From the IMG/VR virus record IMGVR_UViG_3300017707_001960, positions 1 through 39,099 of that record: a DNA stretch of 39,099 bases; one strand, given 5' to 3'. A model generated the notes under the pieces. It saw only the letters and a program-made list of their open reading frames with translations. It ran no database searches and was not told the DNA's origin. The DNA is from a virus. Its lineage: Duplodnaviria > Caudoviricetes. The position numbers and the translations under genes are program-made. Shown here piece by piece: positions 1 to 39,099 of the stretch. Each line of letters begins with the position of its first letter. Positions within the stretch are counted from its first letter, which is position 1.

Positions 1-123
1 GTTCTCATTCCTTCGGACGCGCCTTGGCCTTCGTGAGTCGAGCCAATGCACCTTCCTGCGTGATCTTGATGGGCGTGCGAATCTCTCGTTCCGCTTTGTC
101 CACCCATGAGGCAGATACCTCCA
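1..123. repeat. Terminal direct repeat (copy 1), most likely circular assembly overlap
   Basis: 1-123 is identical to 38977-39099. Confidence 0.95.
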
Positions 124-196
124 GCAAATCAGCGGCCTCGGACTGAGTGAGTCCGAGGCGCTGGCGATGGCTTTTGAGTTGTTCAGCGAAGTTCAT
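5..196 (-). CDS. XRE-family HTH protein (cassette B4)
   Basis: LKSHRQRLGLTQSEAADLLEVS is a typical HTH_3/XRE pattern; paralog of 37593-37847. Confidence 0.85.
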   Translation of the reverse strand: MNFAEQLKSHRQRLGLTQSEAADLLEVSASWVDKAEREIRTPIKITQEGALARLTKAKARPKE

Positions 197-198
197 GC

Positions 199-462
199 TT
201 AGCCGCGAAAATTGAAGTTGTGGTTTTTTTCGGCTTCGCGCTCGTCTGCTTTGAGGGTTGCGACTGCAACTCCTGCTTCAATTTCATAACCAAAGCGGGA
301 GCCAAGGTCTGAGCACGAGACTTCAAAAGCGACGAGCAATGCTTCTTGAGCAGCGGAGCGTGGCGCCTTTTGGAAGCGGTCTGGAATTTCAATCACTTCG
401 TCCGTTGGAAGGCTGGCGAGATACTGAGTAGCTGCTTTTGGTGAGGTAAGGTCGATTTTCAT
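199..462 (-). CDS. Small hypothetical protein upstream of HTH (cassette B4)
   Basis: 87-aa ORF ending 2 nt before the HTH start, preceded by an AT-rich promoter/operator region. Confidence 0.75.
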   Translation of the reverse strand: MKIDLTSPKAATQYLASLPTDEVIEIPDRFQKAPRSAAQEALLVAFEVSCSDLGSRFGYEIEAGVAVATLKADEREAEKNHNFNFRG

Positions 463-494
463 ATTTGTGTTTGGTTCGTTGTTTCTGACTACCC

Positions 495-550
495 CTTATA
501 TTCGCACAATGTCCGAATGATGCAAATACTATTTTCGGACTTTGTGCGAT
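495..550 (-). promoter_or_regulatory. Promoter with twin palindromic operators (cassette B4)
   Basis: TTCGCACAATGTCCGAA (501-517) and TTCGGACTTTGTGCGAT (534-550); TTGCAT -35-like hexamer between them on the minus strand. Confidence 0.65.
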
Positions 551-578
551 TTATTTTCGAGGGATTTAGACCACGGAA

Positions 579-640
579 TGAGAACCATGAGATGCAGCAC
601 AACGGGGCTAAGGCCCCGTTGCTGATCTCAAACGTTCTCC
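579..640 (+). other. attC site B4
   Basis: R'' TGAGAAC, CATGA, L'' GATGCAGC, hairpin AACGGGGC/GCCCCGTT, L' GCTGATC, TCAAAC, R' GTTCTCC; extra base in L''. Confidence 0.92.
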
Positions 641-879
641 GAAAGCTCGCACGCCACAGCGAGCACCATCACGCTTGCCATAGGCTGACCGTCCTTGCTG
701 GCTTTCTTCGCGATCTGGATGGCCGCGCTGAGGATTGAGGTGTTGCCCTCCTTGGCTACCCCTCGAATGATGGGGCTGATTTCGTTGATCTTCTGGGGCC
801 AGTTGTCCCCATGCAGTCGGCGCATAGTGTCGCGTGCATCGTAGAGCTTGGCAGTAGTGCGGATTAGTTTTTCGGTCAT
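628..879 (-). CDS. Hypothetical protein (cassette B5)
   Basis: ORF MTEKLIR...ELSENV fills the interval between attC B4 and B5; start could extend to 915. Confidence 0.7.
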   Translation of the reverse strand: MTEKLIRTTAKLYDARDTMRRLHGDNWPQKINEISPIIRGVAKEGNTSILSAAIQIAKKASKDGQPMASVMVLAVACELSENV

Positions 880-902
880 AAGGTTGTCGTGGGTAAATCG
901 TC

Positions 903-995
903 GGAGAACCATCACATGCAGGCAACGGCTCGTAGCTCATCTGTCATGTCCGCGGGCGTCCATCGCTCGCCGTCGCCTGATCCGGGACGTTCTCC
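903..995 (+). other. attC site B5
   Basis: R'' GGAGAAC, CATCA, L'' CATGCAGG ... L' CCTGATC, CGGGAC, R' GTTCTCC. Confidence 0.88.
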
Positions 996-1246
996 GAGAA
1001 AAGCAGATGCGGTGCGTAAGCCCGAAGCCACTTTTCAGCCTCGTCTTGAGCGTTCACTTCATCCCGCATGATTTCTGCCAGCAGTTCAGCGGCATTGTCA
1101 CGCTGCTCTGCGCATCGTGTGCCGTTGCGTTTCCCTTCTGCCACCCATCCTTCGAGTTCCGTGATTCGATCTCGTAGCCTTGCGGATGATTCGTGAGCAT
1201 CATGCAGCCTGCGTTGCAGTTCATTCAGTTCGGTGTTTTCGGCCAT
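944..1246 (-). CDS. Hypothetical coiled-coil protein (cassette B6)
   Basis: ORF MAENTELNELQRRL...; helical charged sequence; stop lies in the attC B5 loop. Confidence 0.7.
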   Translation of the reverse strand: MAENTELNELQRRLHDAHESSARLRDRITELEGWVAEGKRNGTRCAEQRDNAAELLAEIMRDEVNAQDEAEKWLRAYAPHLLFSENVPDQATASDGRPRT

Positions 1247-1268
1247 AGTATGTCTTGGGTAGTTCGCC

Positions 1269-1361
1269 GGAGAACCCGGCAGTGCTGGCAACGGCGGGGA
1301 GTTGCCTGTTTATGGTTTCGGAAGTGCAGCGCCCGCCGTCGCCAGACTTGAGGCGTTCGAC
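1269..1361 (+). other. attC site B6
   Basis: R'' GGAGAAC, CCGGC, L'' AGTGCTGG ... L' CCAGACT, TGAGGC, R' GTTCGAC. Confidence 0.9.
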
Positions 1362-1606
1362 AAAGCATCGCGGGCGATTCCCTTGAGGTATTCCGCTGAA
1401 TCCGAAAGCGCGACGGCCATTCCGCCGCTGATTCCATTGATGCTCCCCGTCTTCCGCTTCTGGTCTTCCTGCATCCACCAGACGGGGCGGGCGATGCGGT
1501 CTAGTGCCTCGCGGAGTCTTGAGTTTTCACGCTCCACATCCTCGAAGATGCCCAGCGGGAGCCATTCCCTTCCTTGGGCTTTGTATTTTTCAGTTCGTGG
1601 TGTCAT
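1310..1606 (-). CDS. Hypothetical protein (cassette B7)
   Basis: ORF MTPRTEKY...; stop lies in the attC B6 loop. Confidence 0.7.
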   Translation of the reverse strand: MTPRTEKYKAQGREWLPLGIFEDVERENSRLREALDRIARPVWWMQEDQKRKTGSINGISGGMAVALSDSAEYLKGIARDALSNASSLATAGAALPKP

Positions 1607-1615
1607 AAAAAAGAG

Positions 1616-1674
1616 GTCGAACAAGGCGGTGGACTCAACCGCGAGGACGCGGCGAGTCACCTTGTTCGTTCGAG
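1616..1674 (+). other. attC site B7 (59 bp)
   Basis: R'' GTCGAAC, AAGGC, L'' GGTGGACT, CCGCG/CGCGG stem, L' AGTCACC, TTGTTC, R' GTTCGAG. Confidence 0.92.
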
Positions 1675-7541: not shown

Positions 7542-7563
7542 ATCACGAACCAAGAACGAAACT

Positions 7564-7830
7564 ATGACCGCCTCCGAAATCCAACACCGTTTTACCAACA
7601 TCGTGGTCGAGCAGTTATGCTGTGATCCTGACGATGTGGTGGCTGATGCGACCCTGCGCGATTTGGGCGCGGATTCGCTCGATGAGATCGAAATCATCAT
7701 TTTCTGCGAGGAGGATTTTGAGATCAACATCCCGGATGACGATGCGGCCAAACTCAAAACCGTGCTCGATTGCGTGAACTATCTGCATGCCGAGCTGAAC
7801 CGCAATCCGCTGCTCATGCGCAACTCATAA
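7564..7830 (+). CDS. acpP: Acyl carrier protein
   Basis: IVVEQL...DLGADSLDEIEIII..EEDFEINIPDDDAAKLKTV with the phosphopantetheine Ser in DSL. Confidence 0.88.
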   Translation: MTASEIQHRFTNIVVEQLCCDPDDVVADATLRDLGADSLDEIEIIIFCEEDFEINIPDDDAAKLKTVLDCVNYLHAELNRNPLLMRNS

Positions 7831-7863
7831 CCCGTAACCCATAACTCAAAACACATACCCACC

Positions 7864-8274
7864 ATGCCCAACAAACTGAACGCCTACATCGACCCGCTCA
7901 AACTTCAGGGCGCGGTTTTGATGACTCTCAAAGACAAGACTGGAGCACCGACGGAGTGCCTGGTGATCCAGTTGAAAAACTCGCGGATTCGCCGGACAGA
8001 ACGATCTGGCAAGCTCGGGTTGTCCATCGACCTGGTGCCGAATCGCGATGGCAAGGACGAGTTTGGCAACACGCACTGGATCAAGGAGAGCACGACGAAG
8101 GCCGAACGCGAAAGCGCCACGCCGCCGAATCTGCCGTTTCTGGGCAATGCCCGCGAGTATGACGCGGCAACAGGCGGCCAGCGAACGGCACGGCCTGCGG
8201 GCGGTGTGCCGGTGACGGGCGGCGACTCCTCGCCGATGGCGGAGGGGATGGAGGACGATGACATACCGTTTTGA
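7864..8274 (+). CDS. SSB-like protein
   Basis: G/P-rich linker and acidic tail EDDDIPF; replication module context. Confidence 0.6.
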   Translation: MPNKLNAYIDPLKLQGAVLMTLKDKTGAPTECLVIQLKNSRIRRTERSGKLGLSIDLVPNRDGKDEFGNTHWIKESTTKAERESATPPNLPFLGNAREYDAATGGQRTARPAGGVPVTGGDSSPMAEGMEDDDIPF

Positions 8275-8360
8275 ACGTCTCGGATCAGTGACCGCGAACC
8301 CATGATCACGAATACACGACAGCCAGCCCAGAGCGGTTCACTTCATCCGATTTGTTCGGT
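8270..8360 (-). other. attC site A2
   Basis: Minus strand: R'' ACCGAAC, L'' GATGAAGT, GAACCGC/GCGGTC stem, L' ACTGATC, CGAGAC, R' GTTCAAA. Confidence 0.8.
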
Positions 8361-8595
8361 TTGTGGCGAGCCTGTGTGGGGCGGAACGAAGCGCCACCCA
8401 GCAACAAAGTGCTTGTTTCACTTTAGCTGCATTTGCGCGGAATGCGGTCATGAGGCGTTCTGGCTGACAACTAGGAAAAACCCAGAAGGCCGCTGGGTCT
8501 GCTTCTCGCTTCAATGCGGCTGGGTAAGCACTGAATACACCAAGCCATTTCATCAACCGAACGTCAAAACGCAGCAACCCCGAAACGAAGCCTAA
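8302..8595 (+). CDS. Cys-rich (Zn-finger-like) hypothetical protein (cassette A2)
   Basis: CSVC, CAEC and C..LQC motifs; starts in the attC A2 loop and ends in the attC A1 loop. Confidence 0.65.
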   Translation: MITNTRQPAQSGSLHPICSVCGEPVWGGTKRHPATKCLFHFSCICAECGHEAFWLTTRKNPEGRWVCFSLQCGWVSTEYTKPFHQPNVKTQQPRNEA

Positions 8596-8652
8596 GATAT
8601 GAGCCTGCCTGATGCCAACTCGAAGTCACAAGACCATCAACCCTTGTTCGGC
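8556..8652 (-). other. attC site A1 (degenerate L'' arm)
   Basis: Minus strand: R'' GCCGAAC and R' GTTCGGT with L' GCTGCGT; the L'' position (TTGATGGT) does not pair. Confidence 0.6.
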
Positions 8653-8862
8653 ACGGGGGATGAGATGGAGTTTCGCCGCCAGTTTGCCATTCAATTCTTG
8701 GCGAGCTATGCGGCTACTAACTTCAACGACTTATGCGCCAATGGACGCCAAGGCTCCCTTGAGCGGCTACCTGTCGAAGATGCTGAATATCTCAGCGGCA
8801 CAGCATGGCGTCACTGGTGCTACACGATGCCGATGAAGCCGAACAAGAATTATCCAGACTGA
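8599..8862 (+). CDS. Hypothetical protein (cassette A1)
   Basis: 87-aa ORF bounded by GTTCGGC (8646) and GCCGAAC (8838); ends inside attI-A. Confidence 0.7.
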   Translation: MSLPDANSKSQDHQPLFGTGDEMEFRRQFAIQFLASYAATNFNDLCANGRQGSLERLPVEDAEYLSGTAWRHWCYTMPMKPNKNYPD

Positions 8863-8910
8863 CTTTTCCTCTCAACACCTGCAAAACCGGAAACATTCTA
8901 AAACTTATGA
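8838..8910 (-). other. attI-like site A plus intI leader
   Basis: Minus-strand GTCTGGATAATTCTT-GTTCGGC just upstream of intI, non-palindromic; its core matches R'' of the first cassette. Confidence 0.82.
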
Positions 8911-9911
8911 ACCTGCGTGATACACTGGAACAAGTTCGGCTGACGTGCCGCATGCGGCGGTTGTCGAGGCACACGGAGGAGTCTTATGCGGGGTGGATCG
9001 TGCGGTTTGCCAGGCATGTGGCACGCAGGGTGGAAGAGTCACGGGAGGAACGGGTGCGGAGTTTTCTGGAGCAGATGGCCCCGCGTTGCTCGGCATCGAC
9101 GCAAAACCAGGCTTTCAATGCCATCGTGTTCTTTTACCGCGATGTGCTGCGTCAGCCGTTGGGTGATCTGGGGAAATGGACCCGTGCGAAACGGCCGGCA
9201 CGGCTGCCGTCGTGGCTGAGTCCTGATGAGATGCGGCGTTTGTTTGATGCGATGACACCGGGGCCGCTACTCATGGCGCAGGTGGCGTATGGCAGCGGCG
9301 TGCGACTGGCGGAACTGCTGGCGCTGCGGGTGAAGGACATCGACCTGGATGCGTGCCTCATCACGGTGCGCGGCGGCAAGGGTGACAAGGACCGCGTGAC
9401 ATGCCTGCCTCGCTCGCTGGTGTTCACGCTGCGGGCGCATTTGGACCGCATTCGGCTGCTGTATGATGCCGACCGTCAGGCGGGCGCGATGCCGGTGTAT
9501 CTGCCGGACCAACTGGAGCGCAAATATCCGAACGCTGGCCGCGAGTGGCCGTGGTTCTGGCTGTGGCCTGCGGCAAATCAAAGCACCGATCCACGCAGCG
9601 GCATCGTGCGCAGGCATCACATTCATGAGGACACGCTGGGCAAGGCGCTGAAGAATGCCCGCCGTCGCTGCGGACTGAGCAAACGAGTGACGGCGCACAC
9701 GCTGCGTCATAGCTTTGCCACGAACTTGCTGGCGAACGGAGCCAGCATCACGCAGGTGCAGGAATTGCTCGGGCACAGCAGCGTGGAAACGACGCAGATT
9801 TACACGCACTGCATTCCGCAGTTTGCCCGCAGCATCACGAGTCCGATGGACACGCTGCCGCAACCTGCCAACGTGGTGCCGTTTGAAACGCACACAAGGA
9901 GGGCGGCGTGA
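8907..9911 (+). CDS. intI: Integron integrase (IntI family tyrosine recombinase)
   Basis: N-terminal LSRHTEESY..W, ASTQNQAFNAIVFFYR; catalytic R, K (GKGDKDR), HTLRH, LGH, TQIY; IntI-specific insertion VYLPDQLERKYPNAGREWPWFWLWP...DPRSGIVRRHH. Confidence 0.95.
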   Translation: MNLRDTLEQVRLTCRMRRLSRHTEESYAGWIVRFARHVARRVEESREERVRSFLEQMAPRCSASTQNQAFNAIVFFYRDVLRQPLGDLGKWTRAKRPARLPSWLSPDEMRRLFDAMTPGPLLMAQVAYGSGVRLAELLALRVKDIDLDACLITVRGGKGDKDRVTCLPRSLVFTLRAHLDRIRLLYDADRQAGAMPVYLPDQLERKYPNAGREWPWFWLWPAANQSTDPRSGIVRRHHIHEDTLGKALKNARRRCGLSKRVTAHTLRHSFATNLLANGASITQVQELLGHSSVETTQIYTHCIPQFARSITSPMDTLPQPANVVPFETHTRRAA

Positions 9912-24285: not shown

Positions 24286-24852
24286 ATGAACATCTTCCTC
24301 GATCCCGGACATGGTATGTCCAACCGCAAGCCCGGCATTTACGATCCCGGCGCCACGGTGCGCGTGGGCAAGGAGGACATCACCGAGGCTGGCATTGTCA
24401 TGACCTGGGCGAATGAACTCCGCGCCCTGCTCATGGCGCAGGGCCACACGGTCATACGCAGTCGCAAAGACATGCTCGATCCCTCTCCGCTCGGCGACCG
24501 CGTGGAGGACGCGCATCATTTCAAATGCGACGTGCTCGTGAGCCTGCACTGCAACGCGGCGAATGGCAAGGCGAACGGCACCGAGACGTTCTTTCGGGGC
24601 GAGCGCAACCGCACGCTGGCGCAGCGGTGCAATGATGCCGTGGTAAACGCACTGGGCACGCGCAACCGTGGCGTCAAGACCGAAAGCGCCAGCCAGCATG
24701 CCCGCCTCGCCGTGCTGGACTTCCCCCGCGCCGTGCTCATCGAGCTGGGCTTCATCGACCACCCCGGCGACCGCGCCCTGCTGCTCGATCCCAAGAAGAT
24801 GCTGCAAGCCTGTGACGCGCTCTGCGATGCCATCACCGGCACCACCTCTTAA
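24286..24852 (+). CDS. N-acetylmuramoyl-L-alanine amidase (Amidase_3) endolysin
   Basis: IFLDPGHG, E, VSLHCNA, GTETF, AVLIELGFID. Confidence 0.92.
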   Translation: MNIFLDPGHGMSNRKPGIYDPGATVRVGKEDITEAGIVMTWANELRALLMAQGHTVIRSRKDMLDPSPLGDRVEDAHHFKCDVLVSLHCNAANGKANGTETFFRGERNRTLAQRCNDAVVNALGTRNRGVKTESASQHARLAVLDFPRAVLIELGFIDHPGDRALLLDPKKMLQACDALCDAITGTTS

Positions 24853-24889
24853 CTCATCACCTCTAACTCCTAACTTCTAACCCATCCCC

Positions 24890-25960
24890 ATGCCCCGCGA
24901 CCCGCGAGAAACCACCCCCTTTGAAACTGTGGCGACCGTCAAGCCGGGCGAAGTCGCCGCTTTGCTGTGGGTGCCGGAGAATCAGATCCGCGGGGATTTC
25001 TCGCTCACGGTGGGCACGACGCTGCAAGCGGCGCTGCCGCTGGTGTCGAAGGGTGACGGCTTGGGCCGAGGCTTTGAAAACTACGTCTTCACCGACAACG
25101 GCCCCGTCGATGCGGGATGGCATGGGTTCTACTTTGCGCGACCGTTCAGCAGCGGGGAGAAGACGACGGCCTTCCGCACGGTGACGGAGATTCGGGGCGG
25201 CATCTACTGGCCGCCCGTCATGGCCGGGCTAAACGTGCGCAACTTCAAAGCCTACGACGCGGACGGGGTGGAATACACGGCAGATGTGATTTGGGACTTC
25301 AACCTGCGGGACGCCTACGACGGCCCCACCAAAGTGGTGATCGAATACTTCGCCAGCCATGAGCCGCACACCATTGCCACGCCGACGACGATGCAGCCGG
25401 AAGGCGGCACGTTCTTTTATGGCGTGGGGCAGGTGAGCATCCCTCGCTGCCTGCATCCTTCGCTGGAACTCATTTACAGCACCGGCAGCGCCAGCACGCG
25501 CTACCCGTTGCAGACGTTTGTGAAGGCATTCCCGAATACCAATCTGACAAGCTGGCCGGCCACGCTGGTGATTGACGACGGGGAGAAATTCGACAACGGC
25601 CTTTACATCCGGCGCAAGGTCACGGCGTATCGTCCTGGCGACTACGCCACCGCGCCGATCATCTCGACGCCGACGAAGGCCAGCATCGGCAGCACGACGG
25701 TGACGCTGGGCGGCAATGCCAGCAACGACGGCGGCAGCACGATCACCGAGCGCGGCGTGGTGGTGAGCGCCACCGCGACGAATGCCGATCCCGTCATTGG
25801 CGGCACCGGCGTGACGAAAACCACCACCACCGGCACCACAGGTGTGTTCACCGTGGCCGTCACCGGACTCACCAGCGCCACCGGCTACACGTTCAAAGCC
25901 TATGCGACCAACGCACGCGGCACCAGCTACACCGCACTCGACACCTTCACCACCAGCTAA
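24890..25960 (+). CDS. Virion protein with C-terminal fibronectin type III-like domain
   Basis: GGNASNDGGSTITERGVV...TGLTSATGYTFKAYATNARGTSY. Confidence 0.7.
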   Translation: MPRDPRETTPFETVATVKPGEVAALLWVPENQIRGDFSLTVGTTLQAALPLVSKGDGLGRGFENYVFTDNGPVDAGWHGFYFARPFSSGEKTTAFRTVTEIRGGIYWPPVMAGLNVRNFKAYDADGVEYTADVIWDFNLRDAYDGPTKVVIEYFASHEPHTIATPTTMQPEGGTFFYGVGQVSIPRCLHPSLELIYSTGSASTRYPLQTFVKAFPNTNLTSWPATLVIDDGEKFDNGLYIRRKVTAYRPGDYATAPIISTPTKASIGSTTVTLGGNASNDGGSTITERGVVVSATATNADPVIGGTGVTKTTTTGTTGVFTVAVTGLTSATGYTFKAYATNARGTSYTALDTFTTS

Positions 25961-26012
25961 CGCATAACTCTTAACTCATCACCCCTAACTCCTAACCCCT
26001 AACCCATCACCC

Positions 26013-27995: not shown

Positions 27996-30900
27996 ATGCC
28001 ACGCTACGAACTCACCTCCGCCCACACGGGCAAGACCTACGTCATCGAAGGCGAGGGCCAGCCGACCGACGACGACATGATCGACATCGGCCGGCAGCTC
28101 GATGAGCAGACGGCGCGGCAGGCGGGGATTGATCCCGCGCTGCTTCAGCAGACACCTGCGGGCACGGTGGCAAACACGGTGCGGAACATCGGGCCGGAGT
28201 TTGTCGATATGGCCGTGGGCGGACTGGCGAAGCTGAACGAGACGCTGGGCCGCTCCCCGCTGGGCATCGTCTCCCCGCTGGCGCTGGCAAACCGGGCCAC
28301 GGAAATGGTGACGGGCATCAACCCGCTGGCACGCACCGCCGAGGCCACGCAGGTGATCCGCGAAACGGGCGAGGACATGCGCCCCGTGAACCCGTTCAAC
28401 CCGACTGCCCGGACCATCGGCAGCGCGATCAATCAAGTCGGCGGCATGGTGGCGACGGGCGGACTTGCTACCGCCGCAGGCATGGCCCCGGCCACCGCGA
28501 TGACAGCCATCCCTGGCGGCATCGGCTTCGCCGCAGGCGCAGGCCAGGGCATCGACACCGCCCGTCAAATGGGCATCACCGACCCGACCGCGCAGGCGGG
28601 CATGGGCATGGCCTTTGGCGGTGTGGAGATGGCGACCGAGCGACTGGGCGGTATCGGCGGCGACGTCGTGAACCGTTTCATCCGGCCGCAATCCCTGCTG
28701 GGCCGTGCCGCGCTGAATGTGGCGAGCGAATCCGTAGAAGAAAATGTGGCGGGCCGTGCGCAGGATGCAGTCACGGTAGGGGCAGGTCAATTCGTGTCGG
28801 ACCCCAACCGCCCCGGCTTCACCCGCAGCGGCTTCGAGTTGCCGAGCCTGAACCCGCTGAATCCGCAGACCCTTGAGCGCATGAAGCAGGAGGCCATCGG
28901 CGGCGCTGCTGGCGGCGTCGTGTTCAGCGGACTGCAAGCCCTTTCCCCTTCTGCCAGCGTAACCAAGGAATCCGGTCCGACTGCCGATCAAACCGTGCAG
29001 CAAGCCGCCGGTGCGGGTTTGAGTCCCGCCGCTGGCTCCCCTTCCCCTTCCCCGCTCGGCGGCATCGCCCGCAGGGCCGGAACGGTGGATGTGGCGCCGC
29101 TGGTGCCGGGGCTGGAGGAGGACACGGGGGCGCTGACGATGGCGGAGGTGGCGGGGCTGGAGCCAGTTTCAAGTTCCACGTTTCAAGTTTCAAGTCCGGA
29201 GACCGGCAGCCAGCGGCAGGCGATTTTGACGAATGTGCCGGACGCGGTGACGCAGCCGGACAACGGACCCGCGCAAACCATCACTGGCTCCAATGTGCAA
29301 ACGGGCACTGAAATGCCAGTGCCGCCCCCGACTGCGGACGCAGGTGCCGGGGCGGGCGCAACCGTGCCGGGTGCGCAGGGGGTAGGACAAGCAATGTCCG
29401 ACACCGCGCCCGACTCGCAGCTTGACGGACTGCGCACGCAGGAGGTGCCGGTGGGCAGTCTGCGTTTGTCCAAGGACGTGCCGCAGTTCAAGAGCGACGC
29501 GGACGAGGAAACCGGTGTGGTGGAACCGCTGGCGGGCAAGTATCAACGGCTCGGCACGGGGCCGATCCTTGTCTGGGAACGGCTGGACGGCCGCCGCGAG
29601 GTCATTAGCGGGCGGCATCGTTTTGATCTTGCCAAACGCACCGGAGAGCAGACAATCCCGGCGCAGGTCGTGCGCGAGGCGGACGGCTTCACCGTTCAAA
29701 TGGCGGTGACGGCGGACGCAGAACTTAACATTCGAGACGGTCATGGAAAAACCAAGGACTTTGCCAACTACTTCCGCGCCAGCGGCACCACGGACACCGA
29801 AGCAGAAAGCCGAGGCTTACTCGCACGCGCTGCGGGCAAGGCTGGGTGGAGCATCGGCACTCAGGGAAGCCAGGAACTCTTTGATCTACACCAGAACGGC
29901 CGGCTGACGGATGCGCAGGCCGCTGCGGTGGCCCGCACGGCTCCCGGCAACGAGGCGCTGCAACGCGCTGGCATCGCCGCGCTGAACCGTGGCACGCCCA
30001 TTGATGTCACGGTCAATCTGATGCGGGCGCTGGAGCTGCAAACCGGCCCGGCTCCGACCGCCGACCAGCTCGACCTCTTTGGCGCGGATGATTCGATGAT
30101 GCTGCGCATGGAGGAGCAGGCGAAGAAGGCGACCGAGATCCAGCGCGGACTGAAGGAGCAGGTGGCCGCCGTGCAAGGCGCGGCCAAACGCCCGGAGCAG
30201 GCCCGCAAGCTGGGCGTGAATGTGAAAGACCCGGACGGCGTGCGCAAGCGGGTGGAAGAACTCAAGGCGCTGCTCTACCGCTGGGAATCCTGGCCGCTGC
30301 ATGCGGACCTGCGAGCGCAAGTCACAGGCGAAACGCAGGCGCCTGCGATGCAACTGGAAAGCGTGAGCGCGGAACAACTGGCCGAGGAGCAACGCCAGCG
30401 CGAGCAACGCGCCCGACTCGATGCCGGCCAGGCCGCGCCCCTCACCGGCACCGCAGGCGAATACGGCACGCCTGACATGCTCGACAATACGGCTGGAGAC
30501 ATGGCGCTGTTCAATCAATCGCCGACTCTTCTCCTTCCCGCTCGGAACTTCACGGGCGGGCTGGCGCAGCAGCTCGAAGGGAGCGCGGCCACTCTTGGCC
30601 GCAATGCAGCGCGAAGCACCAGGAACCCAGAACCCATCACCCCTAACTCTTCACTTTCGTCTGCCTACGCCCAAGCCTCACGCGGCAGCAGCAGCGCGAT
30701 GGTGCCGATCTCCCGCGTCTATGAGCAGGTGAAGGCGCAGAACCCGGCGCTGACGGTGCCGCAGTTTCTGGCCGAGGTGCAGGCGGCGGACCAGCGCGGC
30801 GAGGTGCTGCTGGAGCCGTTCGATTCCCCGCAGGGCTTGCAAGCGGCGGGCGAGTTCACCGTGCGCAATGCCAGCGGGGTGCCGTCGATCAACATGGCGG

Positions 30901-33900
30901 TGACATCTCCAAGTCTCCCCGTCTCCCCATCTCCAAGTCTGGCATCCCCCGCCGAACTCAAAGCGGCGCAGAAGTCCAACGAATCCAAGCTCGCCGCGCT
31001 CGGGCTGCCGGTGAAGCCGGGAACGCGGATCTGGGCGGCGGCGAAGATGCGGGCGGCGCTGGGGAAAATCGCCAAGGATGGCAGTTATCCGGCGACGATG
31101 CGGGCGATGGCCGATTTGCTCACCCGGGTGAATCTGGACAACCTGCTGCTAAAAGTCGAAGCCGATGCGCGGCTGAACTTTGCCGGGAAGTATCAGCCTT
31201 ACAACGACGGGCGCGGCGAGATCAGCCTGAACACCCGCGTGACGGGACGGGGAGACACGGACATCGTGCAAAGCCTGGTGCATGAGTTGCTGCATCATGC
31301 GACCTACCGCGCCCTGCGCAGTCCGAAGAACGCCACGCAGAAGGGGGCTATCGCCGACCTCGAAGCCCTGCGCAAACGTGCCCTGGCCGCGCTGAGTGCG
31401 CAGGAGCAGGGACGCCAGTTTGACTACGAGCTGAGCAACACGGACGAGTTCATCGCGGCGCTGTTTACCCGTGCTGATTTCCAGACCGCGCTGGCCGGCA
31501 TCCCGGCCGACTCCGCGCCGAAGTCCCTCACCCAGCGCGTGCGCAGCGTGCTCGATGAAATTTTCCGCGTGCTCGGCGAACTCGTGACCGGCAGGAAGGT
31601 GGAACCCGGCAGCGTGCTGGAGGCCAGTTTCTCCGCGACGCTGAGGCTGATGGGACAGACCGCCGCCGCTGGCGGAATGACAAATGGCGAAGGACGAATG
31701 ACGAATGACGCGGCGCTGCTGAATCCGGCCGCGCCTGCACCGAATGAAACACGCTCCCGTTTTGCATCGCCGAACGCGGCGGATCGTGTGATCAACGGGC
31801 CGCGCACGGATGCGCAGGTGGCGGACGAGGCGCGGGCCTGGCTGGGCAGCGTGGACCAGCAGACGGCGATCGAAGCCTTCGCGTCGCAAGCCGTGCCGCT
31901 GCCGCTGGATGCGCAGGAGCACGCGGCGGCGGTGCTCATCAAGGATCTGAGCGAGCAGGCCGCGAAGGGCGGCACGGAGGTGCAGCGGATGTGGGCGCAT
32001 GTGCAGGGCCAGCGCATGGCGCGGATCTGGACCAAGGAATTTCTCTCCGCCGATCCAGCCCGTGCCCTGCGCCAGCGCGGCGTGGTGAATAACACGATCC
32101 TGCAACCTATCGCGCCGATTCTGGCAGCGCAGGAAACGCTCATCGACCGGGCCGAGGCGGTGGGCAAGACGCGCTTTGACGGTGGCTGGGAGGGACTGGT
32201 GCAGAAGATCAATGACCTACTGAAGCGCATCGAAAATCTCGTGGCCGGCACGGCGGCGGAGAAGATCGCCAAGGGTGACAGCACGCCGTCCCTCAAAACG
32301 CTGCTCAACAACCTGCGCCGGAAGATGTATCCGGGCATGGACTGGACCGAAATCTTCACCGATCTGCCGAGCTCACAGAAGCAGCGGCAGTTTGCCATTT
32401 ATGAGCGTCTGATGAAGGACGAGCGGCTGCAAGGGCTGACGCCGCAGGAGCGTCTAGATTTGACGAACGAACTCGACAAGGCATGGCAGCGTGAGCGGCG
32501 CGAGGTTTTCAAACGGGAGCTGCGCAAGGCGGGCATTCTGGGCGAGAAGGACGCGGGCGACCGCGTGAAGGTGACGAATGCGATGCCGAAGCTGCTGCGG
32601 TTGGTGAACCTGGGCATGTTTAACTCGGCGATGTTCCGCGAGGTGATCGCGCCCCAGTATGGCCTGAAGGTGATCGACTCGACCACGGCGGCACGCCTGC
32701 GCGGGATGGCCGAGGCAGCTTATGCGCAGCCGGAAGGCGTGCTGCGGAATCGCAAGCTGGGCGAACTGCTGAACGCGATGCAATCCGCCACGGGCAGCAC
32801 GCTGGCGGAGCTGGTGAATAGCTACTGGACGGCGGCGGTGCTGAGCGGCACGCGGACGCAGTGGGACACCTGGATGGCTTTCACCAACGGCATGGGCACG
32901 AACCTGCTGCAAGCGGCCGGGCTGCTGGCACGCGGTCGTGGCAAGGACGCGGTGGCGGCGCATGCGGCGTGGTGGCGCGGGCTGCTGGACGGCATGCGCG
33001 AGAGCCTGCAAATCCTGGCGAAAGGCGATTACTCGGTGCTTAAACGCTTTGGCACGGATCTGAACAAGGCGCTGCAAGGGGAGAGCGGATTCCGCCCGGT
33101 GCCGCTGGGTGAAAGCCTGTGGCAGAACGGGAACACCTGGCAGAAATACTTCATGGCTCCCGTGATGATCTGGACGGGCCGCCTGATGGCCGCCGCCGAC
33201 CATGTGAACAACACCGCGACGACGGCGGGAGCGATGGCCGTGGCGCGGGCGCTGCATCCTGAGTTTTACGGCCGGACGACGTTTAGCGCCACTGACCGGG
33301 CCAATGCACGGGCGCAGGCTTTGCGCGAGGTGACGGGCGGTGCCGAGCCGGTGACGGCGGCGGACAAGGCGACGGTGAGCGTGCGTGTGCGTGAACTGCT
33401 CTACGGCAGCATGCGCGAGCCGGAACGGCTGGAGGCGAACGAGATCGGCGACATGGCCGCCTTCCAGAATGATCCCACGGGCATTTTCGGCACCATCTAC
33501 GCGGCGATGAAAGCCGGGCTGGGCACGGTGCAGCGCGGCCTGGAGGACTATGCGCAGGACATGCAGGCGAGCCAATGGACACGGGCCGCCGCGGGCCTGA
33601 TGGCGGGCAGTTTGCACGGGCTGACGGGCACGCGGTTCATGCGCTTCGGCTTTAACTTTGGCGCGGAGCTGACGCGCTATGTGCCGGGCACGGCGCTGCT
33701 GGACAAGACTTTCAAGGGCGCGGTGTATGGCCGCGACGCAGGACCGATGCAGCGCGAGCTGCTGCTCGGCAAGAACGTGATCGGTCTGATGCTGGGCAGC
33801 ACGCTGGCGGCGCTGTTCCTGAACAGGGACGACGATGACGAGGGCTGGCAGATTGAGGGCGACTGGAGCGGGCTGACACCGCAGCAGGTGAAGGAGCGCA

Positions 33901-34715
33901 TGAGCGCCGGGCTGGAGCGCATGACGATGTGGAAGCGTGACGGTGACACGGTGCGCCGGGTGTCCTACAAGCAATGGCCGACGATGGGCCTTTTTGCCGT
34001 GGTGGGCGGCATGCTGGACGAGAAGCGCCACAAGCCTGCGCAATGGGCACAGCACGGCCCGGCGGGCCACCTGGGCCGCGCCCTGGGCACGGGCATGCTG
34101 CAAATCAAGAACGTGTCCGCGATGCGCAATCTGGTGGAGTTGTTCGGGGGCACTCGCTTTGCGGGTGATCCGAGCACGGGCATCATTGACGACGTGGTGA
34201 AGACGGCGACGAACTTTGCCGGGGGCTTTGTGCCCACGGCGCTGAAGGACGCGGAGATCTGGCAAGCCCCGCGCAATTTCAAAGCCGAGGGCTGGCTGGA
34301 GGAACTGCAACGCAGCACGCCGATTGCCCGCCGCTTTGTGAACGACGGCCGCCCCCAGCTCAATCTGCTGGGCGAGGAAGTGAAACTGCAACGCGCCCCC
34401 TGGAGCCGGACGATCACAAGCGTGGAAAGCAGCGAGGCCAGCCGCGTGCTGGGCGCCTTGCTGGGCCGTGGCCTGAACCTGCCGCAGCCGAGCGATGCCG
34501 TGCATGTGGTGCAGAACGGCGTGAAGGTGCCGCTGGAGACGCTGGGCCGCGAGAAGGTGTGGCAATACGAGAAGGCCGTGGGCACCGCCTACAAGCAATG
34601 GCTGGCCGCCGAGGGCACGACGCTGCTGCAAATGCCCGTGAAGCAGGCCGCCAAGGTGATCGAGCAACGGGCGGCAAGCATCAAGCGGCAGGCATTGGCG
34701 CGGGTGGTGCGGTGA
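27996..34715 (+). CDS. Giant (2239 aa) internal virion/polyvalent protein with ParB-like and zincin domains
   Basis: G/A-rich N-terminus; GPILVWERLDGRREVISGRHRF (ParB-like); HELLHH...DEFIA (zincin). Confidence 0.75.
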   Translation: MPRYELTSAHTGKTYVIEGEGQPTDDDMIDIGRQLDEQTARQAGIDPALLQQTPAGTVANTVRNIGPEFVDMAVGGLAKLNETLGRSPLGIVSPLALANRATEMVTGINPLARTAEATQVIRETGEDMRPVNPFNPTARTIGSAINQVGGMVATGGLATAAGMAPATAMTAIPGGIGFAAGAGQGIDTARQMGITDPTAQAGMGMAFGGVEMATERLGGIGGDVVNRFIRPQSLLGRAALNVASESVEENVAGRAQDAVTVGAGQFVSDPNRPGFTRSGFELPSLNPLNPQTLERMKQEAIGGAAGGVVFSGLQALSPSASVTKESGPTADQTVQQAAGAGLSPAAGSPSPSPLGGIARRAGTVDVAPLVPGLEEDTGALTMAEVAGLEPVSSSTFQVSSPETGSQRQAILTNVPDAVTQPDNGPAQTITGSNVQTGTEMPVPPPTADAGAGAGATVPGAQGVGQAMSDTAPDSQLDGLRTQEVPVGSLRLSKDVPQFKSDADEETGVVEPLAGKYQRLGTGPILVWERLDGRREVISGRHRFDLAKRTGEQTIPAQVVREADGFTVQMAVTADAELNIRDGHGKTKDFANYFRASGTTDTEAESRGLLARAAGKAGWSIGTQGSQELFDLHQNGRLTDAQAAAVARTAPGNEALQRAGIAALNRGTPIDVTVNLMRALELQTGPAPTADQLDLFGADDSMMLRMEEQAKKATEIQRGLKEQVAAVQGAAKRPEQARKLGVNVKDPDGVRKRVEELKALLYRWESWPLHADLRAQVTGETQAPAMQLESVSAEQLAEEQRQREQRARLDAGQAAPLTGTAGEYGTPDMLDNTAGDMALFNQSPTLLLPARNFTGGLAQQLEGSAATLGRNAARSTRNPEPITPNSSLSSAYAQASRGSSSAMVPISRVYEQVKAQNPALTVPQFLAEVQAADQRGEVLLEPFDSPQGLQAAGEFTVRNASGVPSINMAVTSPSLPVSPSPSLASPAELKAAQKSNESKLAALGLPVKPGTRIWAAAKMRAALGKIAKDGSYPATMRAMADLLTRVNLDNLLLKVEADARLNFAGKYQPYNDGRGEISLNTRVTGRGDTDIVQSLVHELLHHATYRALRSPKNATQKGAIADLEALRKRALAALSAQEQGRQFDYELSNTDEFIAALFTRADFQTALAGIPADSAPKSLTQRVRSVLDEIFRVLGELVTGRKVEPGSVLEASFSATLRLMGQTAAAGGMTNGEGRMTNDAALLNPAAPAPNETRSRFASPNAADRVINGPRTDAQVADEARAWLGSVDQQTAIEAFASQAVPLPLDAQEHAAAVLIKDLSEQAAKGGTEVQRMWAHVQGQRMARIWTKEFLSADPARALRQRGVVNNTILQPIAPILAAQETLIDRAEAVGKTRFDGGWEGLVQKINDLLKRIENLVAGTAAEKIAKGDSTPSLKTLLNNLRRKMYPGMDWTEIFTDLPSSQKQRQFAIYERLMKDERLQGLTPQERLDLTNELDKAWQRERREVFKRELRKAGILGEKDAGDRVKVTNAMPKLLRLVNLGMFNSAMFREVIAPQYGLKVIDSTTAARLRGMAEAAYAQPEGVLRNRKLGELLNAMQSATGSTLAELVNSYWTAAVLSGTRTQWDTWMAFTNGMGTNLLQAAGLLARGRGKDAVAAHAAWWRGLLDGMRESLQILAKGDYSVLKRFGTDLNKALQGESGFRPVPLGESLWQNGNTWQKYFMAPVMIWTGRLMAAADHVNNTATTAGAMAVARALHPEFYGRTTFSATDRANARAQALREVTGGAEPVTAADKATVSVRVRELLYGSMREPERLEANEIGDMAAFQNDPTGIFGTIYAAMKAGLGTVQRGLEDYAQDMQASQWTRAAAGLMAGSLHGLTGTRFMRFGFNFGAELTRYVPGTALLDKTFKGAVYGRDAGPMQRELLLGKNVIGLMLGSTLAALFLNRDDDDEGWQIEGDWSGLTPQQVKERMSAGLERMTMWKRDGDTVRRVSYKQWPTMGLFAVVGGMLDEKRHKPAQWAQHGPAGHLGRALGTGMLQIKNVSAMRNLVELFGGTRFAGDPSTGIIDDVVKTATNFAGGFVPTALKDAEIWQAPRNFKAEGWLEELQRSTPIARRFVNDGRPQLNLLGEEVKLQRAPWSRTITSVESSEASRVLGALLGRGLNLPQPSDAVHVVQNGVKVPLETLGREKVWQYEKAVGTAYKQWLAAEGTTLLQMPVKQAAKVIEQRAASIKRQALARVVR

Positions 34716-34993: not shown

Positions 34994-35269
34994 TGTGGCA
35001 AAACGTGTGACATGGCGTGTTTTCAGGTGACGCAATGCGTTTATCTTCAAAGTATTGCATCAAATGGCACATCGGTCTTAAAATCCGCTGCCGTGAAAAC
35101 GGCTTGAGGGTTCGAGTCCCTTCATCGGCATCGTGATTTGAGGCGCTGCGTAGGGGGAATGGGGTAGGGTGCGGGGTGTGGAGGGTAGTTAAGAGGCTGG
35201 CGTGATGTGGTATATTGCGGCATATGTTGCTTGCGTGGTGTGACATGGAGTGTTACAAAGTGTGACATG
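34994..35269. repeat. Integrase arm-type repeats flanking attP
   Basis: TGTGGCA (34994), GTGTGACATGG (35005, 35238), GTGTTACA (35250), GTGTGACATG (35260). Confidence 0.65.
35077..35130 (+). other. attP core: 3' half of tRNA-Leu(TAA)
   Basis: CTTAAAA anticodon loop, TCCGC, variable arm GCCGT-GAAA-ACGGC, T arm GAGGG-TTCGAGT-CCCTT, CATCGGC-A; no 5' half; integrase adjacent. Confidence 0.85.
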
Positions 35270-36676: not shown

Positions 36677-37234
36677 TTAGTTCTTGGTCGCACTAGCAAG
36701 GCCGGGCACGAGTTCGGCCTCGATGACGGTGGCGCTTTGCTGTTCCAAGGCGGCGCGGCGTTCGGCGGCGGCTTTGCGGGCGGCTTCGAGTCGGTCTTGA
36801 GCGGAGACGGTGACGACGGCTTTAATTTCCGTGGGCATGCCGTGCAGGCTGCGCTCGATGTCGTGGGCCATTTTGGTGCTCATGGACACGGCCATGAGGT
36901 CGGACTTTTTCGCGTCGGGTATCAACTCGACCATCTTTTCCGTGCCTTGGAGGACGGCGAGCTGCGCATTTTTGGCGGCGAGTTCGGCGAGTTGTTCAAC
37001 GGTGAACTCGGTTCGCATGAGGGCGGCGATGGTTTGCCGGGACTTTCCCACGCCTAGCTTGCCGAGTTCGCGTTCGAGTGCGGAGATGTTGGTGATGCCG
37101 TGCTCGCGGATCATCTCGACGCAAATGGCGTAGCTTTCGGGATCGCTGCTTTTCCAATTCTTCGCCGTGTGCTCGCGCCACAAGTCGATGGGATGCGGAG
37201 GCAGATCGGCGAGGGGAAGCGGCGGGGTGGTCAT
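36677..37234 (-). CDS. HTH/helical protein, terminase small subunit-like
   Basis: HTH-like NISALERELG...SRQTIAAL, helical core, G.PTEI motif, C-terminal VIEAELV; assignment is inference. Confidence 0.45.
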   Translation of the reverse strand: MTTPPLPLADLPPHPIDLWREHTAKNWKSSDPESYAICVEMIREHGITNISALERELGKLGVGKSRQTIAALMRTEFTVEQLAELAAKNAQLAVLQGTEKMVELIPDAKKSDLMAVSMSTKMAHDIERSLHGMPTEIKAVVTVSAQDRLEAARKAAAERRAALEQQSATVIEAELVPGLASATKN

Positions 37235-37302
37235 AGGTTTTAGAATGTTTCCGGTTTTGCGGGTGCTACCCAGAAATATTGTCTGGATAGTTCTTGTTAG
37301 CT
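37231..37302 (+). other. attI-like site B (second copy of attI plus intI leader)
   Basis: Reverse complement matches 8838-8910 in two blocks; core GTTAGCT at 37296 matches R'' at 37521. Confidence 0.82.
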
Positions 37303-37589
37303 GACTTCCAAAGGCGCGCCCACATCGACGGGCGGCGGAGTTTCTGGTTCTCAAATTCTAGTCGGTCGGCGCGGGCTTTTTCAGCGCGATACCATACACA
37401 CAGCCATGTGCGCCAACGGTTAATTGTGTATTGACTGCTCTGCCATTTATTAATCCGCCGTTCAAGCTTCTGACAGCGACGATTCAGGCGTCGGTTCGTC
37501 TCGCGGGCGATAGCCAAGTCAGCTAACAAGGCGCTGGACTCCGACAGAATGGGCTTCTGTGTCGTATCGATGGGGTGATTCTGTTCCAT
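37266..37589 (-). CDS. Hypothetical coiled-coil protein (cassette B1)
   Basis: Starts in the attC B1 loop and ends in attI-B (ANKNYPD). Confidence 0.7.
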   Translation of the reverse strand: MEQNHPIDTTQKPILSESSALLADLAIARETNRRLNRRCQKLERRINKWQSSQYTINRWRTWLCVWYRAEKARADRLEFENQKLRRPSMWARLWKSANKNYPDNISG

Positions 37590-37650
37590 ATTCTATTGTT
37601 CCATGGCAGGTTTCCGCCGCCCATTCTGCGGGTCAGCTTGATCGTTCGTC
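37521..37650 (+). other. attC site B1 (130 bp)
   Basis: R'' AGCTAAC, AAGGC, L'' GCTGGACT, CAGAATGGGC/GCCCATTCTG stem, L' GGTCAGC, TTGATC, R' GTTCGTC. Confidence 0.88.
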
Positions 37651-37847
37651 CCCTGAGTGCGTCGCTTGGCCTTCGCGAGCCTCGCAAGCGCCCCTTCCTG
37701 CGTTAGGACGTGCGGAAGCGTGCCTTTCTCCCACTGCCACACGGCACGCGGGGAAACGTCCAGGAATGCGGCAAGCTCGGCCTGTGTCAGGCCGAGCCGC
37801 TCGCGTTGGTCTTTGAGTTGTTCAGGGAAGCTCACAGGATTTTGCAT
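37593..37847 (-). CDS. XRE-family HTH protein (cassette B2)
   Basis: LKDQRERLGLTQAELAAFLDVSPRAVWQWEKG. Confidence 0.88.
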   Translation of the reverse strand: MQNPVSFPEQLKDQRERLGLTQAELAAFLDVSPRAVWQWEKGTLPHVLTQEGALARLAKAKRRTQGTNDQADPQNGRRKPAMEQ

Positions 37848-38014
37848 CCGATTTCGTTTCCGGTGACGAAGCTTGAGACGTATTCCACGTCTCCGTCTTC
37901 CGTCGTGACCTCATAGGAGGTTCCTACTTTGTCGCTGATTTGGCCGAGGACCGAGCGGCCCATTCCAAAGTTGATCTTGACTGCGGTGCCGTTTTTGATG
38001 TCGAGTGTTTTCAT
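37832..38014 (-). CDS. Small beta-rich hypothetical protein upstream of HTH (cassette B2)
   Basis: 60-aa ORF overlapping the HTH start; preceded by a promoter/operator region. Confidence 0.7.
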   Translation of the reverse strand: MKTLDIKNGTAVKINFGMGRSVLGQISDKVGTSYEVTTEDGDVEYVSSFVTGNEIGCKIL

Positions 38015-38039
38015 GGTGTGTTCGGTTTGGTTACGTTTC

Positions 38040-38093
38040 TAGTTTCGCACATTATGCGAACAGAACAAGTAATATTTTCGCATATTGTGCGAT
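38040..38093 (-). promoter_or_regulatory. Promoter with twin palindromic operators (cassette B2)
   Basis: TTCGCACATTATGCGAA (38044-38060) and TTCGCATATTGTGCGAT (38077-38093); same 33-bp offset as in B4. Confidence 0.7.
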
Positions 38094-38315
38094 TTATTTC
38101 TCAGAGCACTCTGAGCATAGAGGAGCATTCCCGAACGCCCCGCCTCGGCTGTCCATGCCGTCGCGGCGCATCCAGTTTGATGCTGGTAGGAACTTCCCGC
38201 AGCCGATACCAGAGCCAACCATGCCCGTCGTGCTCATACCGCACTGCGTAAGCCATTCGTGACGGGGACGAACCATGCGCTGCTGACCAACTGGCGGGGC
38301 GGATGAGTCTTTCAT
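38094..38315 (-). CDS. Possible Cys-containing small protein (cassette B2)
   Basis: ATG in the attC B2 loop overlaps the upstream stop (ATGA); CG..GCGKF..CSEC. Confidence 0.4.
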   Translation of the reverse strand: MKDSSAPPVGQQRMVRPRHEWLTQCGMSTTGMVGSGIGCGKFLPASNWMRRDGMDSRGGAFGNAPLCSECSEK

Positions 38316-38366
38316 GGTGGCGATGCTGGTAGCGCCCCGCCAGTGGCAGAGCTTGAAGCGTTCTCC
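38267..38366 (+). other. attC site B2
   Basis: R'' GACGAAC, CATGC, L'' GCTGCTGA, ACTGGCGGGGCG/CGCCCCGCCAGT stem, L' GCAGAGC, R' GTTCTCC. Confidence 0.88.
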
Positions 38367-38551
38367 CCCTTGCGGGAGCGCTTCGGACTGCGGAGTGCAA
38401 GAAGCTCTAGCGCCATCGCTGCCTCTTGCGTGATAGTGCCGCCTTGCTCGCGCTGGTTGATTGCTTTGCGGCTTACTCCCAGCGCAACGGCCAGAGCGGC
38501 CTGGGTCATCCCCAGCCGCTCCCGTGTGGCTTTGTATTCGTCGGAGGTCAT
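38312..38551 (-). CDS. XRE-family HTH protein (cassette B3)
   Basis: MTSDEYKATRERLGMTQAALAVALGVSRKAINQREQG. Confidence 0.85.
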   Translation of the reverse strand: MTSDEYKATRERLGMTQAALAVALGVSRKAINQREQGGTITQEAAMALELLALRSPKRSRKGENASSSATGGALPASPP

Positions 38552-38799
38552 GCTACTGCTTTTTCCCATCCGCGAAAGTTGCCGGACTCAAACTCATTGA
38601 TCATGTAAAGCTTCGTTCCGTTGCCGCGAGTCGCTACGATTTCGCGCTTGATCTTGTTTTCCTTCATCACCCGAGCGGTGTTTTCACGACCGCGAGCGGC
38701 GACTTGCTCTGGAGTGAAGGATTGCAGGACATTGAATGTGAGACCGTTGATTTCGATCTTTTCGATTGCGATGTGAGGGGCGATTGATGTTGTGTTCAT
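38548..38799 (-). CDS. Small hypothetical protein upstream of HTH (cassette B3)
   Basis: 83-aa ORF with ATGA overlap to the HTH gene. Confidence 0.72.
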   Translation of the reverse strand: MNTTSIAPHIAIEKIEINGLTFNVLQSFTPEQVAARGRENTARVMKENKIKREIVATRGNGTKLYMINEFESGNFRGWEKAVA

Positions 38800-38807
38800 G
38801 GTGAGAG

Positions 38808-38859
38808 ATAGTAACCCAAGGTTACAGCCAGTCAAACGCTAAATGTAACTTTTCGTAAC
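38808..38859 (-). promoter_or_regulatory. Sigma70-like promoter with twin operators (cassette B3)
   Basis: Minus strand TTGACT-N16-TACTAT; GTAACCCAAGGTTAC (38811-38825) in the spacer and GTAACTTTTCGTAAC (38845-38859). Confidence 0.7.
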
Positions 38860-38884
38860 TTTATTCAACGTCTGGCAGAACGGG

Positions 38885-38983
38885 GGAGAACAAGCCCACT
38901 GGAGCTAACCTGATGGGCGAGGTTGCACCATCGGCTAGCCACGCTTTGCCCGCCCATCAGGTAGCTCACTGGAGATGTTCTCA
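38885..38983 (+). other. attC site B3
   Basis: R'' GGAGAAC, L'' ACTGGAGC, ACCTGATGGGCG/CGCCCATCAGGT stem, L' GCTCACT, GGAGAT, R' GTTCTCA. Confidence 0.85.
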
Positions 38984-39099
38984 TTCCTTCGGACGCGCCT
39001 TGGCCTTCGTGAGTCGAGCCAATGCACCTTCCTGCGTGATCTTGATGGGCGTGCGAATCTCTCGTTCCGCTTTGTCCACCCATGAGGCAGATACCTCCA
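38977..39099. repeat. Terminal direct repeat (copy 2)
   Basis: Identical to 1-123. Confidence 0.95.

Follow-up and report, generated by a model that had tools for sequence, protein, structure and literature searches.

Introduction

A survey of 10,705 phages yielded three complete integrons, one In0 and 17 clusters of attC sites without an integrase gene nearby, known as CALINs (Qi et al. 2023, PMC9892861). In the cryptic M16-3 prophage of that survey, the phage genome carries intI, attI and cassettes together with a remote second array at a copy of attI; its IntI is 95% identical to a Shewanella chromosomal one and the annotated genes face forward. The CALINs of virulent phages such as TJE1 hold attC-separated small genes, methyltransferases included, and such attC sites were shown to be substrates of IntI1. 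In TJE1 itself the genes have the standard orientation, and no integron integrase was found among the matches listed. The published orientation has been compared here for M16-3 and TJE1, and other arrays of the survey may hold inverted genes. Forward orientation was described as essential for expression from the cassette promoter, Pc (Nivina et al. 2016, PMC5027507). In the present study the viral record IMGVR_UViG_3300017707_001960 (Duplodnaviria; Caudoviricetes; 39,099 nt, the whole of which is called the window) was analysed, with emphasis on array B, a set of seven cassettes running across the contig junction from 37296 to 1674. We propose that array B is the second cassette array of a phage-owned integron, placed at a duplicated attI-like site on which the phage's own IntI likely works in trans, and we give this reading a probability of roughly 0.72.

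Results

The attC sites and cassettes of array B

The window is a complete virus record. Its terminal repeat of 123 nt (38977..39099, plus strand) gives a circle of 38,976 bp, on which array B is continuous. The repeat equals the first 123 bp of cassette B4, and the contig start coincides exactly with a crossover point.

The original prediction had placed seven attC sites across this junction, and all of them were recovered at the same coordinates by a covariance model trained on 48 attC sites from bacterial chromosomal integrons only and run without filters over the window. These are attC1 (37521..37650, 130 nt, 40.3 bits), attC2 (38267..38366, 100 nt, 32.6 bits), attC3 (38885..38983, the last position being equal to 7 on the circle; 99 nt, 18.3 bits, folding z -6.3), attC4 (579..640, 62 nt, 33.0 bits), attC5 (903..995, 93 nt, 26.4 bits), attC6 (1269..1361, 93 nt, 25.8 bits) and attC7 (1616..1674, 59 nt, 45.1 bits), where the array ends. 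The plus strand is the top strand throughout, the model having set the minus strand as bottom strand for 7/7 sites. They fall within the top 8 matches of the window (18.3-45.1 bits, rough E 4e-8 to 0.03); the eighth match is the attC 8270-8360 of the intI-linked array, on the other strand, and the next reaches 7.9 bits. The heuristic attC scanner is unspecific by itself, giving 1.8 matches at score 12 or more per shuffled genome. Folding of the bottom strands, which had been suggested as a check, gave stems (z -1.7 to -7.7) in which a C of the L'' box is left unpaired and other bulges occur as well. Folding energy alone cannot choose the strand, since the top strands fold to a similar degree. 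The variable length of the sites (59-130 nt) agrees with the original prediction, but the diverse origins read from it are borne out only in part, as all seven share one type with an extra G in the top-strand L'' box. This type is also common in Verrucomicrobiota chromosomal arrays.

Every cassette start is complementary to its own end, over 12, 10, 10, 11, 9, 8 and 7 nt from B1 to B7, exactly as had been described, and 46 matched bases remain over the seven cassettes when the shared GTT is subtracted. In the 7x7 matrix of starts against ends, the diagonal is the row maximum in 6/7 rows. The exception is B6, whose start pairs with the B5 end over 9 nt and with its own end over 8, because B5 and B6 both begin GTTCTCCG. 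The proposed signature of cassettes integrated from circles is supported by this complementarity and by the presence of other cassettes at the same site in relatives. The two doubts raised beforehand, that the covariance model might not recognise the sites and that these genes might always keep the same order in relatives, were both dispelled: the sites are recovered by the model, and the cassettes found there in relatives are different ones.

All cassettes are oriented on the plus strand and all their open reading frames (ORFs) lie on the minus strand. Cassette B1 (37296..37643, 348 bp) has one ORF (37589-37266), which starts in its own attC and stops in the attI. B2 (37644..38359, 716 bp) carries a 60-aa gene (38014-37832) and a helix-turn-helix (HTH) gene (37847-37593) with operator-like repeats upstream, B3 (38360..38976, 617 bp) an 83-aa gene (38799-38548) and an HTH gene (38551-38312), and B4 (1..633, 633 bp) an 87-aa gene (462-199) and an HTH gene (196-5). 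Single ORFs of 83, 100 and 98 aa are found in B5 (634..988, 355 bp; ORF 879-628), B6 (989..1354, 366 bp; ORF 1246-944) and B7 (1355..1667, 313 bp; ORF 1606-1310). In each of B2, B3 and B4 the small gene and HTH gene stand behind a non-coding stretch with inverted repeats, and this stretch and the HTH are common to B2 and B4; these cassettes are likely self-regulated modules. A defence or toxin-antitoxin label for B2-B4 was considered and dropped, PADLOC giving generic HTH matches only. Cassette GC content is 0.51-0.58 against 0.615 for the genome. The accessory arm had been described as cassettes over nearly its whole length; cassettes do dominate it, although at a smaller share of 3,348 of about 4,570 bp (about 73%) between the repressor-like and the small-terminase-like gene.

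Two attI-like platforms and one integrase gene

Array B is headed by an attI-like platform (platform B, 37231..37298, plus strand) with the crossover G|TT at 37296, of which 66 bp are 80% identical to the attI of intI with its leader; by blastn, 37231-37295 aligns with 8910-8845. The latter segment forms platform A (8844..8910, minus strand), also attI-like, whose crossover at 8844 lies 63 bp before the intI start codon and which faces away from intI. The IntI gene (8907..9911, plus strand) encodes 334 aa in an open frame, with the catalytic motifs and the IntI-specific insertion present. IntI scores 355 bits against TIGR02249 (cut-off 265) and aligns to VchIntIA 2A3V across the insertion and the catalytic motifs (E 3e-65). 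Array A (8270..8844, minus strand) heads away from intI in the canonical intI/attI geometry and contains two cassettes (282 and 286 bp), likewise inverted, their ORFs lying on the plus strand. Its attC at 8270-8360 scores 24.7 bits, and that at 8556-8652 folds poorly and scores 7.9 bits. This poorly folding site, the first of array A, is perhaps a chimera formed from two attC halves, and three runs have contigs in which 8642 is joined back to 8344.

The IntI gene is not adjacent to array B, being 7.2 kb from its nearer end (attC7). At platform B the start codon found 62 bp from the crossover is that of a small-terminase-like gene (36677..37234, minus strand; named from position only), which stands in place of intI with its start codon placed relative to attI as that of intI is. 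Homologs of this gene immediately precede the large terminase in L035-L037 and follow intI in L002-L005. By definition array B is a CALIN; unlike most CALINs, it keeps an attI and has an integrase on the same replicon. It is more than an attC cluster, as it starts at an attI-like platform of its own, a copy of the one linked to intI.

In relatives, both platforms are conserved in sequence up to GTT and variable after it, as is expected of a candidate attI. At the B position, between the cassettes and the small-terminase-like gene, intI appears in a graded series: it is whole in L031-L033, divergent in L027/L029, reduced to 5' remnants in L026 and L028/L030, and absent from the window. A GC-rich inverted repeat follows the platform B leader in the relatives G001, G002, G003 and G005; in G005 (L039), neither intI nor the small-terminase-like gene has a homolog after the platform. 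We infer that platform B is probably a former integron which has lost its integrase gene and is served in trans. When an 18-nt attI pattern was searched in metagenomes, 48 stretches were obtained, seven of them in the phage group (L144, L151, L162, L165, L172, L173 and L180); two of these seven are the window's own record, and the remaining stretches look like chance.

Inverted orientation of the cassette genes

All 10 ORFs of array B run opposite to the attC top strand and towards attI, unlike the usual integron layout, in which genes point away from attI and are expressed from Pc. An earlier description of the array had its cassettes right and left this inversion relative to attC, the unusual part, unmentioned. 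In six of seven cases the terminal ORF reads through the crossover and ends 6-51 nt into the attC or attI next to it.

Orientation in other loci was anchored on intI, taking cassettes upstream of intI, on the opposite strand and at most 1,500 bp long, and the longest ATG ORF of each. Among 46 viral cassettes 40 were inverted, three forward and three ties, as against 14, 70 and one among 85 bacterial cassettes (Fisher p 1e-17, cassettes within a locus not being independent). Counted by locus, arrays were mostly inverted in 14/17 viral and 0/16 bacterial cases. The AT skew of the top strand agrees (-0.19 viral versus +0.02 bacterial), and many of the bacterial inverted calls look like shadow ORFs. 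A real inverted cassette, with a DUF4326 gene (88.5 bits), was seen at 5585-5947 of L043, an otherwise mostly forward Verrucomicrobiota chromosomal integron; a phage-to-host cassette transfer is a possible explanation.

The distant viral loci form a second IntI clade of nine rows. In 8/9 of these loci scanned, PHROG matches to replication, recombination, tail or packaging genes and methyltransferases were obtained, L016 giving weak ones only. Therefore, inversion accompanies at least two phage IntI lineages. The viral ORFs read the junction AAC as Asn in 51/52 and 20/22 cases, and a stop occurs within 20 codons after the junction at 94% and 93% of viral sites versus 57% of bacterial ones.

Cassette exchange among relatives

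Of five close relatives, with IntI 96-97% identical, four have the two attI sites and the other is a 40% fragment. Two types of B array occur in these four, c3-c6-c7-c2 and c4-c11-c2, and all seven cassettes of the window are missing from both. At either site of the relatives the distal cassette is conserved (c1 in A, c2 in B) and the proximal ones change, a pattern expected from insertion at attI. A catalogue of 86 cassettes from 25 array segments, the window's nine included, was compiled; it comprises 59 distinct cassettes, and 76 of the 86 show start/end complementarity over 7 nt or more. Cassette content differs between phages with 95% identical IntI, and single cassettes recur in other settings. 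Thus c4, the first cassette of array B in G002/G005, recurs in the intI-linked array of L009, c3 recurs in the L028 array between the small-terminase-like gene and a phage integrase, and L042 holds one cassette twice at 100% identity. In L026-L030 an extra attI-headed array was seen between the small-terminase-like gene and the phage integrase. Judged from these contigs, two arrays per genome recur at a different position in this second group of relatives.

Among the window's own cassettes, B6 is about 90% identical over its whole length in the intI-linked array of L009, where it directly follows c4, and in 27/40 scored B6 homologs the sequence diverges directly after the Asn that matches the crossover AAC. 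B3 and a cassette in L008/L009 are 81% alike at the HTH end and 87% at the promoter end; the other gene does not align, from which recombination inside cassettes is deduced. Segments homologous to B7 occur in two other phages, the core lying without attC nearby in L188 and just upstream of a different intI in L189. B1 has no relative in the viral contigs searched, and the search with B5 returned the same phage and one weak match only. The 60-aa gene of B2 has atlas matches at 0.90, only to unnamed viral clusters. In places, a similarity of 78-95% is seen between attC sites of relatives.

In public runs, contig ends part from the window sequence at 37642, 38363, 38973, 636 and 1671, each 0-4 nt away from a crossover; what is joined at 38363 proves to be the beginning of a genuine L195 cassette. 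The listed contig joints derive from B2/B4 paralogy, array A or short matches, and none of them excises a cassette cleanly. Recombination activity in this very population is, on these contigs, only hinted at. Separately, in the published viral genome L193 (KX853513, virus Rctr41k) the stretch 4680-9434 contains an IntI-like gene annotated as xerD with about five attC sites downstream on the same strand; as predicted from its sequence, this is an unrecognised phage integron of a different layout.

Cargo of relatives and integrase phylogeny

Among 54 cassette ORFs of relatives, 12 had a Pfam match: four DNA methyltransferases, two Acb2/Tad1 hairpins, three HTH proteins, an RNA ligase, a CHC2 zinc finger and a ribosome modulation factor; a marginal PAPS-reductase domain was the thirteenth. 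The Acb2/Tad1 hairpins scored 30.7 and 28.7 bits (cut-off 27). The ORFs concerned, at L009 6807-7190 and L027 8069-8380, are candidate anti-CBASS or anti-Thoeris sponges. In the PHROG scan of the distant viral loci, two further cassette ORFs were methyltransferases.

In a quick tree of 109 integrases, the clade that includes the window IntI (support 95) is made up of 19 viral rows and a single Verrucomicrobiaceae contig, which has inverted cassettes; the sister of this clade comprises four Verrucomicrobiota chromosomal IntIs (support 97). IntI-like genes were found in 48/145 genomes of the family of the best bacterial hit, at 42-49% identity, as against 72% for that one contig. Many contigs preserve an intact IntI of the phage clade, at 63-97% identity.

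Genome setting

A major capsid protein (PF17236), large terminase (phrog_2), DnaB helicase and amidase are encoded in the window, as identified by Pfam/PHROG profile search, and besides IntI there is a weak match to a phage-type recombinase (E 1.6e-4). Before this recombinase, at 35068-35131, a tRNA-like 3' piece with a Leu-like anticodon loop by eye is a candidate attP; its best match to tRNAs of the likely host family is 84%. ARAGORN detected zero tRNA in the window, and no Rfam match in it reached gathering level. The host is likely a member of Verrucomicrobiota, going by the affinities of the sequence. The two public runs holding half or more of the sampled window words are both freshwater metagenomes, one of which (X1) is possibly where the window came from and does not count as independent support. 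No RNA run was among the sequencing runs listed with window words. Other features of the window are a 2,239-aa protein (27996-34715) without Pfam or PHROG match, conserved in relatives; a small ORF after dnaB (7566-7805), acyl carrier protein-like by eye; AC-rich repeats of 7-nt period just upstream of start codons (7822-7860, 24844-24889, 25952-26011 and 30624-30654); and a GC-rich hairpin motif common to 13361, 13741, 19355 and 24247.

Discussion

Our study has identified the attC sites and cassette boundaries of array B, a duplicated platform, an intact integrase gene, differing cassette sets in relatives and inverted genes. According to the mechanism proposed here, the phage IntI would excise cassettes as circles by attC x attC recombination and insert them at either attI, new cassettes entering at the attI and older ones being pushed outwards. 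Platform B would descend from an intI-bearing integron that lost its integrase gene here. The promoterless inverted cassettes would be read by the phage's own leftward transcript towards attI and not from Pc, and with such transcripts no Pc is needed. The excision and insertion step and the transcript step are jointly considered probable. Each attC may provide the stop codon of the gene upstream of it and, in many cases, the start codon of its own gene. Phage accessory genes would make up the cargo, which in relatives includes methyltransferases and anti-defence-like proteins.

A number of points weigh against this interpretation. No recombination has been observed, and no listed contig joint skips a whole array B cassette (contigs only, from which rare forms are dropped). 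For the loose contig ends the match spans about 30 bases, and other phages may be their source. The B arrays of G001/G003 and of G002/G005 are identical or near-identical, which leaves two types of array and not four, and B6 alone of the seven window cassettes was found whole elsewhere. The orientation calls depend on the longest ATG ORF, with cassettes of the same locus non-independent. The reading-frame bias at the crossover was also seen in 19/21 mostly spurious reverse ORFs of bacterial cassettes, and by this control the frame-0 bias, tried as proof of design, was downgraded to weak evidence. Promoter and terminator scans gave results at chance level and no Pc was found in the window, where profile searches and PADLOC also assigned the cargo genes no recognisable function beyond HTH.

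The main rival is that a host chromosomal IntI mainly moves the cassettes, during lysogeny or infection, and that the phage IntI is dispensable for array B. Host integrases could do so, since IntI-like genes occur in 48/145 genomes of the likely host family; moreover, host attC sites are of the same type, the L035-L037 contigs have cassettes or the same slot without an adjacent intI, and IntI1 recombines phage attC sites (PMC9892861). Against it, platform B copies the attI beside the phage IntI, and the phage IntI clade has stayed intact in many contigs over the range of identity given above. Integrases also usually prefer their cognate attI. We therefore regard service by the host integrase as unlikely. 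A rather smaller chance is left for the attC hairpins being mere homology or microhomology linkers for RecT-like phage recombination, with the integron signature a relic. Recombination inside cassettes, as between B3 and its L008/L009 counterpart, and the partial likeness of relatives' attC sites would agree with such linkers, whereas the changes occur at G|TT and 76/86 cassettes have a start matching their own end; likewise, the proximal-variable and distal-conserved polarity and an exact duplicate at an attI-proximal slot fit insertion at attI.

Passive carriage of a piece of bacterial chromosomal array captured once has precedents in the Vibrio and Shewanella prophage captures described in the phage survey (Qi et al., PMC9892861), and the lower GC content of the cassettes would suit it. 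It is already largely refuted, because bacterial arrays face forward, no phage cassette matched the bacterial cassettes sampled, the B7 gene core is present in a phage without attC nearby, and content differs between phages whose IntI is 95% identical. Equally far-fetched is a misassigned strand, by which ordinary forward cassettes would have been read from the right. Both strands fold about equally and the heuristic scanner gave attC3 a slightly higher score on the other strand; yet the covariance model chose the same strand for 7/7 sites, all seven sites carry the extra L'' base on the left arm, the attI stands at the left end with no attC beyond it, and array A shows the same inversion in canonical geometry. 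Hence, an integron owned by the phage and acting at two attI-like sites is preferred here.

If so, the locus has several implications. Integrons have been viewed as bacterial devices, and more recently as reservoirs of anti-phage genes; in this case one seems to belong to a phage, and the methyltransferases and Acb2/Tad1-hairpin cargo of relatives point to an integron on the phage side of the arms race. The reversed layout with two loading sites suits phage operons, and ends encoded by attC would explain the variable N- and C-terminal tails on many small phage proteins. The locus also bears on the origin of cassettes, because the B7 core occurs without attC in another phage and an inverted DUF4326 cassette lies in a Verrucomicrobiota array. 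A broader scheme can be put forward tentatively, with the odds against it: several phage lineages may have independently domesticated integron integrases, using inverted, frame-compatible cassettes of phage genes at more than one attI, early transcripts and counter-defence cargo, with occasional passage into host integrons. If several lineages have indeed done so, phages would be one missing factory of integron cassettes. With one integrase, two attI sites and nine cassettes, the window offers a defined and testable system.

Comparison with known systems

No paper on phage-owned integrons with systematically inverted genes was found in the literature searched, which covered titles and the openings of abstracts, with most subscription journals outside coverage. 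The R and L boxes, extrahelical bases, variable terminal structure and insertion polarity of integrons generally are common to the window. In the textbook attC the first extrahelical base is a G on the bottom strand, whereas in the window it is a C. Isolated reverse ORFs with their own promoter are known in usual integrons, for example in toxin-antitoxin cassettes; in the arrays of the window, on the other hand, inverted genes are the norm.

The sedentary chromosomal integrons of Verrucomicrobiota (L043, L056 and L059) have the sister IntI clade, the same attC type and the same intI/array geometry. They differ in that their genes are mostly forward and their cassettes mostly start with GTTA (77/93), whereas phage cassettes mostly start with GTTC (45/56). 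The M16-3 prophage resembles the window in its remote second array at a copy of attI. However, the window IntI belongs to a phage clade at most 50% identical to chromosomal IntIs, all of its cassette genes are inverted, and relatives show turnover at both sites. To the described systems the window adds two platforms with likely one integrase serving both, traffic between arrays and the graded loss of intI.

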